A DNA stretch of 64,000 nucleotides from NCBI RefSeq assembly GCF_003334255.1, contig NZ_QOWU01000023.1. The stretch is one strand, 5' to 3'. Shown here piece by piece: positions 502 through 9,492 of this stretch; within the stretch, counting starts at the first letter, position 1, and each line of letters starts with the position of its first letter. The notes under the pieces are model-generated. The model was given only the letters and a program-made list of their open reading frames with translations, ran no database searches and was not told the origin of the DNA. The position numbers and the translations under genes are program-made. This stretch comes from Escherichia coli (GTDB lineage: Bacteria; Pseudomonadota; Gammaproteobacteria; Enterobacterales; Enterobacteriaceae).

Positions 502-1609
502 AACCGATGTTCCGGGATTATCTCCGTATTTTGACAAAAGAAATAACAAAGTTTACTGGCGTTACAGGCATCCCATAACAGGCAAAAATCACGGTCTCGG
601 CAGTATTGACCAGAAACTGGCAGAAACTATTGCAGCAGAAGCGAACAGCCGTCTTGCCCGGCAGCAAATGGAACAAATGCTCAGTCTGCAGGAGAAAATT
701 ATTAGTGATACCGGCGGTTCATCAACCGTTACCATTTTTCTGAATAATTACAGAAAAATTCAACAGGAAAGATATGAAAACGGCGAGATCAAACTCAACA
801 CGCTGAAACAGAAAGCGGCCCCTCTCAGGGTATTTGATGAACGTTTTGGCACCAGACCGTTAGATGCCATAACCGTAAAAGATGTGGTATCAGTACTGGA
901 AGAGTACAAGGCCAGAGGACATAACAGAATGGGACAAATTTTCAGGAAGGTACTGATCGATGTTTTCCGGGAAGCTCAGCAAACGGGCGATGTACCGCCA
1001 GGCTTTAACCCTGCAGAATCGGCAAAAAAACCGCAGGTGCGGATATCAAGACAGCGACTGACTTTTGATGAGTGGATGATGATTTATAACGCAGCGGAAA
1101 AGGATGGTTACTTTTTACAGCGCGGTATGCTGCTGGCACTGATGACAGGCCAGCGCCTTTCAGATATTTGCAAAATGCAATTTTCGGATATCCGGGATGG
1201 TTATCTTCATGTCGAACAGCAAAAAACAGGAACCCGGATTGCCATCCCTCTGGCTCTGCGTTGCGATAAATTAAATCTCACCCTGGATGATGTGGTGTCA
1301 TCCTGCCGCGATTGCGTTCTTAGTCCGTGGCTATTGCACCACCATCACGCGAAAGGGACAGCTAAGCGCGGCGGGATGGTTAAGCCAGCAACATTAACCG
1401 TTGCATTTAAAAAAGCCCGGGATTCTGTGGATTACAACTGGCGTGCTAATGGCACCCCTCCCTCTTTCCATGAGCAGAGATCTTTATCAGAGCGATTGTT
1501 CAGAGAGCAGGGGGTTGATACCAAAATTTTGCTAGGCCATTCGAATCAAAAAATGACCGATATTTACAACGACGCACGCGGTAAGGAATGGAAAAAACTG
1601 GTCATTTGA
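479..1609 (+). CDS. int: Phage tyrosine integrase (lambda Int family)
   Basis: 376-aa ORF with the length and xis-int arrangement of a lambdoid integrase; it ends 45 bp from the ompW stop codon. Confidence 0.85.
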   Translation: MARPRKYKTDVPGLSPYFDKRNNKVYWRYRHPITGKNHGLGSIDQKLAETIAAEANSRLARQQMEQMLSLQEKIISDTGGSSTVTIFLNNYRKIQQERYENGEIKLNTLKQKAAPLRVFDERFGTRPLDAITVKDVVSVLEEYKARGHNRMGQIFRKVLIDVFREAQQTGDVPPGFNPAESAKKPQVRISRQRLTFDEWMMIYNAAEKDGYFLQRGMLLALMTGQRLSDICKMQFSDIRDGYLHVEQQKTGTRIAIPLALRCDKLNLTLDDVVSSCRDCVLSPWLLHHHHAKGTAKRGGMVKPATLTVAFKKARDSVDYNWRANGTPPSFHEQRSLSERLFREQGVDTKILLGHSNQKMTDIYNDARGKEWKKLVI

Positions 1610-1616
1610 TGACCAG
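1598..1616. terminator. Perfect inverted repeat (ctggtca-tttga-tgaccag) spanning the int stop codon; candidate terminator or att-core element
   Basis: 7-bp stem and 5-nt loop read directly from the sequence, followed by a T-run on the + strand. Confidence 0.4.
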
Positions 1617-1650
1617 TTTTGCAGAGGGGTTTTGCAGAGGTTTTGCAGAG
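1616..1650. repeat. Short tandem repeat, about three copies of a 12-bp unit (gttttgcagagg), between the int and ompW stop codons
   Basis: Read directly: gttttgcagagg / ggttttgcagagg / ttttgcagag. Confidence 0.7.
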
Positions 1651-1654
1651 AAAA

Positions 1655-2293
1655 TTAAAAACGATATCCTGCGGAGAACATAAACACCCACGGATCCAGT
1701 CGCACCGAGTCTTTTACGGTAGTAACACCAGATTTGTACTTAGCCGTGGTATCGATATCCATGTACCACACTGACATGTTAACCAACCAGTCACGGTTAA
1801 TCAGATAATCAACCCCCACCTGCCCGGCAGCTCCCCAGGAATCTTTCAGACTGAGATCGGAAAGCCCTGCCTCTTTGCCATGATCGTTAAATCCATTATC
1901 AAAGAAGGTGGTGTAGTTAATACCTGCCCCAACGTAAGGACGGAATTTGCTGCTGGCATCACCAAAATACCACTGCGCCATCAGTGTTGGTGGCAGATGA
2001 TGAACGGTTGCAATATCGCCGGTCGCCCGGGTGCCGATTTTATGGCGGAACGGCGTCGCTGCCAGTAATTCCACACCAATGTTGTCGGTCGCCATATAAG
2101 TAAACGTAAGGCCCAGTTGCGTGTTATTGGTCACGCTGAATCCACCCAGACTTCCTAACGTACCACCAGCACCTTCTGTTGGACGTACGGTTGCAGAACC
2201 TGCACGCATAAAAAATTCGCCTGCTTCATGCGCAAAGGCACTGCCAGAGAGAAGAGTTGTTACTGCCAAAGCCGCCACTGTTAACTTTTTCAT
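1655..2293 (-). CDS. ompW: Outer membrane protein W
   Basis: 212-aa ORF with a signal peptide (MKKLTVAALAVTTLLSGSAFA) and C-terminal ...GYRF; position next to yciC matches K-12 synteny. Confidence 0.95.
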   Translation of the reverse strand: MKKLTVAALAVTTLLSGSAFAHEAGEFFMRAGSATVRPTEGAGGTLGSLGGFSVTNNTQLGLTFTYMATDNIGVELLAATPFRHKIGTRATGDIATVHHLPPTLMAQWYFGDASSKFRPYVGAGINYTTFFDNGFNDHGKEAGLSDLSLKDSWGAAGQVGVDYLINRDWLVNMSVWYMDIDTTAKYKSGVTTVKDSVRLDPWVFMFSAGYRF

Positions 2294-5744: not shown

Positions 5745-6043
5745 ATAGAGATTCAATATTTAAGGGCACGGTTTTTGCAACCGTGTTCTTGTTTGGCCTT
5801 TCCTTATAGCCGGTCAGTGCATTCACCACCACAAGCAGATAATAACTTTATCTGTATTTCTTTATATGATGTGAGCATATTCAGGAAAAATGACCTTTCC
5901 TGAGGTACAGTTGCTCGCTCAAATCCTTTGATTACTGCGGATAAAGTCATCTACTATTGTTTAACACATTCACGCGCTGCATGTATGTTCAGAAAATGTG
6001 CACGCTAAGATAATTAAACAAAATTGTGGTTACAGAGGTATCA

Positions 6044-7297
6044 GTGAGTCACTGGGCTACATTCAAACAAACAGCAACAAATTTATGGGTGACCCTTCGG
6101 CACGACATTCTCGCGCTGGCCGTCTTTTTAAATGGATTGCTTATTTTTAAAACAATCTATGGTATGTCGGTCAATTTGCTTGATATTTTCCATATCAAAG
6201 CATTTTCAGAGTTGGATCTCTCCTTGCTGGCAAACGCCCCACTCTTTATGCTCGGCGTCTTTCTTGTCCTGAACTCCATTGGCTTACTGTTCCGGGCAAA
6301 GCTCGCATGGGCAATCAGTATCATTTTGTTGTTGATAGCGCTAATTTACACCCTGCATTTTTATCCCTGGCTGAAATTTAGTATTGGATTTTGCATTTTT
6401 ACGCTGGTGTTTTTGCTGATACTGCGCAAAGACTTCTCCCACAGTAGCGCCGCAGCCGGGACAATTTTTGCATTTATTAGTTTCACGACATTACTGTTTT
6501 ACTCAACCTACGGTGCGCTTTATTTAAGCGAAGGTTTTAATCCGCGAATAGAAAGTTTGATGACCGCGTTCTATTTTTCGATAGAAACCATGTCAACCGT
6601 CGGCTATGGCGATATTGTCCCTGTTTCTGAATCAGCACGATTGTTCACTATTTCGGTCATTATTTCCGGCATTACCGTTTTTGCCACATCTATGACCTCA
6701 ATTTTTGGTCCGCTTATCCGCGGAGGATTCAACAAACTTGTAAAAGGAAACAATCATACAATGCATCGTAAAGATCATTTTATTGTTTGCGGACATTCGA
6801 TTCTCGCCATCAATACGATCCTGCAACTGAATCAACGCGGACAAAACGTAACGGTTATCAGCAACTTGCCTGAAGATGATATCAAGCAACTTGAGCAACG
6901 CTTAGGCGATAATGCTGATGTTATCCCCGGTGACAGTAATGACAGTTCTGTATTAAAGAAAGCGGGAATCGATCGTTGCCGGGCCATTCTGGCGCTGAGT
7001 GATAACGATGCAGATAACGCGTTTGTTGTACTCTCGGCAAAAGATATGAGCAGTGATGTCAAAACAGTTCTCGCCGTCAGTGATAGCAAAAACCTGAATA
7101 AGATTAAGATGGTACATCCGGATATCATTCTCTCACCGCAACTGTTTGGCAGCGAAATTCTGGCGCGAGTTTTAAATGGTGAAGAGATTAATAATGATAT
7201 GCTCGTTTCAATGTTGTTGAACTCAGGTCATGGTATTTTCAGCGATAACGATGAACTAGAAACGAAAGCTGACAGTAAAGAATCGGCGCAAAAATAG
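6044..7297 (+). CDS. kch: Voltage-gated potassium channel Kch
   Basis: Contains the K+ selectivity filter TVGYGD and a C-terminal RCK/TrkA-like domain. Start set to the GTG giving MSHWATFKQ... (417 aa). Confidence 0.85.
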   Translation: MSHWATFKQTATNLWVTLRHDILALAVFLNGLLIFKTIYGMSVNLLDIFHIKAFSELDLSLLANAPLFMLGVFLVLNSIGLLFRAKLAWAISIILLLIALIYTLHFYPWLKFSIGFCIFTLVFLLILRKDFSHSSAAAGTIFAFISFTTLLFYSTYGALYLSEGFNPRIESLMTAFYFSIETMSTVGYGDIVPVSESARLFTISVIISGITVFATSMTSIFGPLIRGGFNKLVKGNNHTMHRKDHFIVCGHSILAINTILQLNQRGQNVTVISNLPEDDIKQLEQRLGDNADVIPGDSNDSSVLKKAGIDRCRAILALSDNDADNAFVVLSAKDMSSDVKTVLAVSDSKNLNKIKMVHPDIILSPQLFGSEILARVLNGEEINNDMLVSMLLNSGHGIFSDNDELETKADSKESAQK

Positions 7298-7351
7298 AGT
7301 TTAAAGACGGAAGAGTAAACTTATTGGGCACCGCAATGGTGCCCAGTACAT

Positions 7352-7636
7352 TTAGATATTGTAGATCGCAAACAATAACGAGTTACGCTGTTTGTTTAGA
7401 ATGCACTTCCTGATGCTGTGGATACGCATATTTCGGCGCGATTGCCCCTCAAGCCAACGCGATTTACGTCGGCTAGCCTGACGCTGCATGCGCCAGCGCC
7501 CCACTTCCGTTCTACTCCGCTTCATGTTAACTACTCTATGCAATAACAGAATGGTCATTATACCCCCACCCCCGACGCTGACCAGTGCTTTTCCCGCGTT
7601 TTTATTTGCCAGATGAATCCATATGCGTAAACTCAT
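7352..7636 (-). CDS. Hypothetical small protein(s) in the kch-cls spacer; N-terminal hydrophobic segment, C-terminal Arg-rich tail
   Basis: 94-aa ORF on the strand opposite kch and cls, with an internal Met giving MKRSRTEVGRWRMQRQASRRKSRW.... K-12 carries small genes (ymiA/yciX) at this position as far as I recall, but I cannot confirm identity. Confidence 0.3.
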   Translation of the reverse strand: MSLRIWIHLANKNAGKALVSVGGGGIMTILLLHRVVNMKRSRTEVGRWRMQRQASRRKSRWLEGQSRRNMRIHSIRKCILNKQRNSLLFAIYNI

Positions 7637-7667
7637 AACAATGCGCTTTCAAAAGGATTTCTAATCT

Positions 7668-9492
<1,825 letters not shown>

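Follow-up and report, generated by a model that had tools for sequence, protein, structure and literature searches.

The segment examined here occupies positions 7298-7667 of the window, the whole 64,000-nucleotide stretch of Escherichia coli DNA that was analysed, and corresponds exactly to the spacer between the kch stop codon (7297) and the cls ATG (7668). Both flanking genes lie on the plus strand, kch at 6044..7297 according to the RefSeq annotation and cls (clsA) at 7668..9128 according to the open reading frame (ORF) listing, the annotation and the MG1655 genome. For kch, the mechanical ORF opens with a GTG at 6026 (423 aa), as against the RefSeq start at 6044 (417 aa). Within the spacer, the minus strand carries the coding sequence of yciY (7352..7525; 57 codons plus a stop codon at 7352-7354), a real gene recognised by the RefSeq annotation (1603..1776 of locus L001), by MG1655 b4595 and by the NCBIfam family NF033701.

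In E. coli K-12 MG1655, yciY (b4595) is found at 1308788..1308961, divergent from clsA and convergent with kch. The spacer DNA of the window is 100% identical to MG1655 1308646-1309015, and the 57-aa sequence and the neighbours are likewise the same; the two are the same gene (b4595; NF033701; PF26518). A megablast search with positions 7250-7720 gave a match of at least 95% identity in 5,423 of the 5,426 complete E. coli genomes searched, and a YciY family protein lay under the match in all of the 30 RefSeq E. coli records listed out of 5,424 matching, the name yciY being used in 29. The NF033701 (yciY_fam) model scored 109.8 bits with the 57-aa form, against a whole-protein cut-off of 30, and 107.7 bits (cut-off 30) with a longer mechanical ORF of 94 aa that overlies the gene, in which only residues 38-92 matched. 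The window protein holds all 25 invariant columns of the conserved YciY core, including S4, E7-V-G-R-W-R-M13, R23-W-L-E26 and Q28-S-R30. A Pfam-A scan of the 94-aa ORF gave no match in the library copy used, the PF26518 label being attached to homologues elsewhere.

The feature is thus very probably the known gene yciY, arranged as a compact, stand-alone transcription unit of 230 nt on the minus strand, and we found no evidence contradicting this gene model. The preliminary description of the region had treated it as holding unannotated small-protein candidates. The spacer contains no unannotated gene: both MG1655 and the listed RefSeq records of E. coli already carry yciY, and the gene is experimentally supported. 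YciY belongs among the many conserved small proteins of E. coli with proven expression.

Conservation and genomic context of yciY

A scan of species, with one genome per species, detected relatives of the locus in 343 stretches, and the best 80 loci were kept; the 81 sequences referred to below are these 80 species loci together with the window. The ATG of the 57-aa form is present in 81/81 sequences, with an ORF of either 57 or 59 aa, and 25 residues of YciY are invariant along the alignment. Nei-Gojobori analysis of 79 distinct sequences gave a pN/pS of 0.146 in the yciY frame (pS 0.627, pN 0.092), and variability by codon position was 0.088/0.052/0.323. The same test applied to the other frames yielded pN/pS values of 1.6-2.6 in four of them and of 0.31 in the antisense frame that shares wobble positions with yciY, the latter being the artefact expected from wobble sharing. 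Strong purifying selection at the protein level, together with the clear variation at third positions, shows that the peptide itself is selected. Four plus-strand ORFs antisense to the gene (7324..7413, 7392..7481, 7418..7546 and 7488..7616) were considered as candidates and rejected, with stops in most species.

A protein search recovered 137 homologues, all of them PF26518, from Citrobacter, Salmonella, Klebsiella, Enterobacter, Cronobacter, Kluyvera and other genera. A profile HMM search of 1.84 billion cluster representatives returned only 38 hits, which were YciY-like fragments or members save for one repetitive 819-aa protein, and linked YciY to no larger family. The supplement of a published survey of Enterobacteriaceae microproteins places YciY clusters in 14 genera, including Dickeya, Edwardsiella, Morganella, Pantoea, Pectobacterium, Proteus, Providencia, Serratia and Yersinia. 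Two database labels fall well outside this range, namely Chryseobacterium sp. 18061 for a typical Enterobacteriaceae cls-yciY locus (L075, CACSKA010000003.1) and Listeria monocytogenes for a 58-member YciY cluster (P0054); both probably reflect contamination or mislabelling in public assemblies.

The gene cls is divergent from yciY in 80/80 species loci, with a spacer of 136-146 nt from ATG to ATG, while only the five Escherichia loci (L003-L007) among the 80 have an orthologue of kch on the downstream side. In the three divergent family members whose surroundings were inspected, one of them Dickeya-like, yciY is again found divergent from a 486-aa PLD-type cls and yciU, and the downstream genes differ. 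The invariant cls neighbour and the genera of the published survey therefore indicate that the family is distributed across Enterobacterales and linked with clsA and not with kch. In the remaining loci (L008-L082), the gene downstream of yciY depends on the genus and may be, for example, a chemoreceptor gene, an unknown 244-aa gene or yciI directly; since the downstream genes differ by genus, the yciY terminator marks a recurrent boundary of insertion or deletion. The adjacency to clsA could have been conserved simply because the two promoters overlap and no neutral breakpoint lies between the genes. A deviating locus was observed in Kluyvera genomosp. 3 (L044, CP022114.1, 1404-2858), in which cls reached 68% identity by tblastn versus at least 86% elsewhere and the yciY frame stays open for 91 codons ahead of the gene; a problem of sequencing or a frameshift may underlie this oddity, or the allele may be divergent.

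Expression of yciY and the divergent cls promoter

The transcription start site (TSS) table of Kim et al. 2012 (PMC3415461) assigns to yciY (b4595) a start at 1306787 (+) of NC_000913.2, supported by 27 reads and giving a 5' UTR of 25 nt, and the sequence listed upstream of it ends in ...GGGGGTATAATGACCATT / ...CTGGTCAGCGTCGGGGGTGGGGGTATAATGACCATT. The converted coordinate, which was checked, is 7550 on the minus strand of the window. Upstream of it, the promoter scan identified the -35 hexamer TGGTCA (7579..7584, minus strand), of which CTGGTC is conserved across the 81 sequences, and the -10 hexamer TATAAT (7557..7562, minus strand), near-invariant in the same alignment. A weak Shine-Dalgarno-like AGAG (7534..7537, minus strand) stands 8 nt before the ATG, and (A)GAG(T) is kept at this place in nearly all 81 sequences.

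Tetracycline ribosome profiling by Nakahigashi et al. 2016 (PMC4909307) lists a single start in the spacer, at 1306812 of U00096.2, which is the ATG at window position 7525, and the sequences published for the DNA and the 57-aa peptide are identical to those found here. The same authors (PMC4909307) used a chromosomal yciY-Venus fusion (IVP3) as their positive control, and it fluoresced. Start-site profiling and tagging had been proposed as checks in the preliminary description, and both published experiments support the start of the 57-aa form. Spanning 7550 to 7321, the yciY mRNA is a monocistronic transcript of 230 nt in which the first AUG is that of yciY. In the sequence of events shown by these data, a sigma-70-type promoter (TGGTCA, 16 nt, TATAAT) fires at 7550 and yields a transcript with a leader of 25 nt and the weak AGAG motif ahead of the first AUG at 7525; translation then proceeds through 57 codons up to the stop at 7352-7354, and a GC-rich hairpin at 7345-7325 sets the yciY 3' end at 7321, the same hairpin ending the convergent kch transcript at 7350. 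The supplements of the Cappable-seq and SMRT-Cappable-seq studies, in the versions consulted, contain no entry for the yciY locus.

On the opposite strand, the promoter scan, the alignment and the published TSS agree on a cls promoter at 7606..7641 (+), with a -35 hexamer TTGCCA at 7606-7611, a -10 hexamer TAAACT at 7628-7633 and a start at 7641, the latter equivalent to the cls TSS at 1306696 (-) with a 27-nt UTR reported by Kim et al. 2012 (PMC3415461). The yciY and cls promoters thus stand back to back, a distance of 21 nt separating their -35 boxes. The intergenic alignment is marked by islands of conservation that follow them: the cls Shine-Dalgarno sequence, TAAACT, and TTGCCA with an A/T tract on the cls side, and CTGGTC, the near-invariant TATAAT and the AGAG(T) motif on the yciY side. 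A further weak start assigned to cls by Kim et al. 2012 (PMC3415461), at 1306925 of NC_000913.2 with 3 reads and a 256-nt leader, corresponds to window position 7412 (+); a transcript from this point would be antisense to most of yciY and would cross the yciY promoter into cls.

The 94-residue reading frame and the proposed gene names

The preliminary description had centred on a minus-strand ORF of 94 aa with a hydrophobic N-terminal segment and an Arg/Lys-rich tail of 57 aa opening at an internal Met. As a reading of the DNA this was accurate, as the quoted sequence is found exactly at 7352..7636 and contains ALVSVGGGGIMTILLL; in the ORF listing, its translation reads MSLRIWIHLANKNAGKALVSVGGGGIMTILLLHRVVN followed by MKRSRTEVGRWRM...LLFAIYNI. 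Met38 opens the 57-aa tail (MKRSRTEV...AIYNI), which is YciY and contains, as described, a marked excess of basic residues (13 Arg and 4 Lys, pI 12.0, net charge +14.6). What stood of the small-protein candidate is therefore the real gene that starts at the internal Met, while the longer form with the hydrophobic N terminus is not a protein. The hydrophobic segment, whose maximum Kyte-Doolittle mean over 19 residues is 1.69, is the translation of -35, spacer and -10 DNA: the ALVSVGGGGIMTILLL codons (7541..7588, minus strand) coincide with the -35 hexamer, spacer, -10 hexamer and TSS of yciY, the variable 16-nt spacer encoding 'VSVGGGG'. Since these codons are the yciY core promoter, the 94-aa ORF represents an open frame across promoter DNA, and it exists only because the frame happens to be open across the yciY and cls promoters in Escherichia and a few other genera.

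Two alternative identities of the reading frame deserve to be weighed here. According to the first, the full ORF would be translated, and a hydrophobic helix at the N terminus would anchor the small product in the membrane, leaving the basic tail in the cytoplasm. In its favour, the frame is open with an ATG at 7636, the hydrophobic window is the one noted above, and 94-aa versions are predicted also in Klebsiella and Trabulsiella. Moreover, when the 142 nt upstream of the real 57-codon gene were shuffled, at least 41 extra open codons appeared in ~4% of the shuffles and an ATG-led extension of at least 37 codons in only ~1%, so that the extension is mildly unusual in one genome, yet it is not conserved. 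The 37-codon extension (7526..7636, minus strand) is instead non-coding promoter DNA. Its ATG lies 86 nt upstream of the mapped yciY TSS (7550) and, as CAT at 7634-7636, falls between the cls -10 hexamer and the cls TSS, and is therefore absent from the yciY mRNA; nor is any start site listed at this ATG by Nakahigashi et al. 2016 (PMC4909307). An in-frame stop occurs 3-26 codons before the yciY ATG in most of the 80 species, interrupting the extension in Citrobacter and Salmonella among others. In the 25 loci used for the extension, its pN/pS is 0.87, as against 0.11 for the core of yciY, and it shows no 3-nt periodicity (0.289/0.304/0.328 by codon position); the codon-substitution check suggested in the preliminary description thus sustained the 57-aa frame but failed for the upstream 37 codons. 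Its hydrophobic residues lack conservation. Those amino acids of the extension that are conserved fall on the promoter hexamers of cls and yciY, and this partial conservation is explained by the conserved promoter elements that the codons overlie. In sum, the hydrophobic segment lies upstream of the TSS, is unconserved and is free of coding selection, and we regard translation of the 94-aa form as exceedingly improbable; nor does the annotated yciY gene of K-12 include the longer reading.

The other identity, that of the K-12 small genes ymiA/yciX, had been suggested in the preliminary description, and no evidence speaks for it. YmiA and YciX (b4522 and b4523) resemble YciY in being small, uncharacterised E. 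coli proteins encoded in an intergenic region, but they belong to another locus: in MG1655, ymiA, yciX and ymiC occupy 1335148-1335667 between cysB and acnA (ymiA and yciX alone, 1335148-1335458), ~26 kb from the spacer, and BLASTP of YmiA and of YciX against the ORF produced no alignment. This identity can be set aside altogether. Removal of both readings eliminates a false lead, in which the proposed names were wrong and the membrane-anchored 94-aa form was an artefact of reading across a promoter, and leaves yciY as the gene of this spacer.

A hairpin shared by the yciY and kch transcripts

The hairpin noted in the preliminary description just downstream of the ORF, at 7325..7345, proved to be a real functional element, with a perfect stem, a folding energy that stands out from shuffled sequences and mapped 3' ends on either side. 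It consists of an 8-bp stem, (T)GGGCACC / GGTGCCC(A), closed by a 5-nt loop; its folding energy is -16 to -19 kcal/mol (z = -2.9 to -5.3 relative to shuffles), and the motif is found a single time in the window and in 0/100 shuffles. Term-seq data of Adams et al. (10.1101/2020.07.18.207399) map the primary 3' end of the yciY mRNA to 1308992/1308993 (+) and a further 3' end, in kch sense, to 1308963 (-). The sequences listed there were verified as spanning -50 to +10 around each position, and the ends therefore correspond to 7321/7320 (7320..7321, minus strand), 4-5 nt past the stem, for the yciY mRNA and to 7350 (plus strand), 5 nt past the stem, for kch. A weak internal 3' end in the same data set (Adams et al., 10.1101/2020.07.18.207399), at 1308845 or window position 7468 (-), lies 57 nt into yciY, with a value of 937 versus 14,252 for the primary yciY end.

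A hairpin of the form GGGCACC(G)...(C)GGTGCCC follows the yciY stop codon in 80/80 loci, whatever gene lies downstream. In 79/81 sequences an uninterrupted arm of 6 bp or more begins 4-10 nt beyond the stop codon, and in the remaining 2/81 the stem folds with a mismatch or a G-U pair. RNAalifold analysis of 34 diverse sequences gave six consensus pairs with 0 broken, and one pair with a compensatory change. What is conserved in the stem is its sequence, with little sign of covariation: across genera (L003-L082), the core GGCAC/GTGCC (7326-7344) is invariant despite a pS of 0.63, whereas the loop and flanks vary freely and only the outermost stem pairs covary. This degree of sequence conservation exceeds what a generic terminator stem needs.

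The arrangement recalls the bidirectional intrinsic terminators of convergent genes, in which a single GC-rich hairpin is shared and 3' ends are located just past the stem on both strands, and in many other genera the yciY hairpin is indeed preceded by an A-tract and followed by a T-tract. The E. coli hairpin differs from these terminators in that its stem is sequence-conserved, the U-tracts are degenerate on both sides, as seen in the flanking tails AAUAAGUUUACUCUU and GUACAUUUAGAU, and a consensus terminator scan of the window did not call it. A run of at least 4 T within 12 nt past the stem was present in 28/81 sequences. Given the poor U-tract and the negative scan, the mapped 3' ends may be processed ends protected by the hairpin and not sites of termination. 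With RNA ends mapped on both strands, the element is best described as a bidirectional 3'-end former belonging primarily to yciY.

Possible function of YciY

The 57-aa protein has a GRAVY of -1.14 and lacks any hydrophobic run of sufficient length to cross a membrane. AlphaFold2, run with a 30-sequence alignment, predicted one continuous helix covering residues 5-56 with a mean pLDDT of 88.7, and conserved positions occur all around the helix (conservation moment 0.011). Taken together, YciY is predicted to be a soluble, extremely cationic protein (+15, pI 12) folded as a single long alpha-helix. The conservation on all faces argues against a simple amphipathic helix lying on the membrane surface and suggests a helix enclosed by a partner, which might be RNA, the ribosome or a protein complex, although it does not identify that partner. 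A profile search of the PDB found no relative of solved structure and gave as best match, at a non-significant E = 0.04, a basic helix of mitochondrial uS14m; this match and that to RNase P p29 (E 0.04-0.4) were rejected as compositional. Full-text literature searches for yciY/b4595 found no functional study.

We infer that YciY most likely works by binding a polyanionic partner, for which two candidates may tentatively be put forward. One possibility is RNA or the ribosome. RMF, Sra and bL34 are small, highly basic helical proteins associated with the ribosome or RNA, and YciY is like them in being ~45-60 aa long, Arg-rich and cytoplasmic with a pI of at least 11, a general resemblance only that comes with no detectable homology; to our knowledge, no ribosome association of YciY has been reported. 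About equally plausible, and hence just as tentative, is the anionic-lipid/cardiolipin-synthase system encoded by clsA, which is the most specific testable alternative because of the invariant divergent linkage to that gene. In its narrower form, in which YciY would be a dedicated partner of the cardiolipin system, its cationic Arg/Trp-rich helix binding ClsA or anionic phospholipid, or repressing or activating the shared promoter region, this proposal appears rather unlikely; if true, it would explain why yciY and clsA remain linked promoter to promoter across Enterobacterales while the downstream genes have been exchanged.

It could also be argued that the conserved unit acts mainly as DNA or RNA, either as a divergent promoter tuning cls or as a small RNA or antisense partner of kch, with the peptide being incidental. 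The back-to-back promoters with their strictly conserved spacing, the short 230-nt transcript with its sequence-invariant hairpin, and the overlap of 30 nt between the 3' ends of the yciY and kch transcripts would all fit such a role. Against it, however, stand the strong purifying selection on the protein with clear variation at third positions and the experimentally demonstrated translation of yciY; kch is not downstream outside Escherichia, and an Rfam scan of positions 6800-8200, with E values up to 1, gave no match. We consider this explanation very unlikely and favour the selected peptide as the main product of the unit, which may have an extra role in promoter coupling besides. The constant divergence from clsA, the near-invariant TATAAT, the invariant stem and the conservation on all faces of the helix offer starting points for a functional study of YciY. 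Between the two -35 hexamers, at 7585-7605, the A/T tracts AAATAAAAA and GGGAAAAGC (in yciY sense) are also conserved, and their position is where putative UP-element subsites of either promoter would lie.
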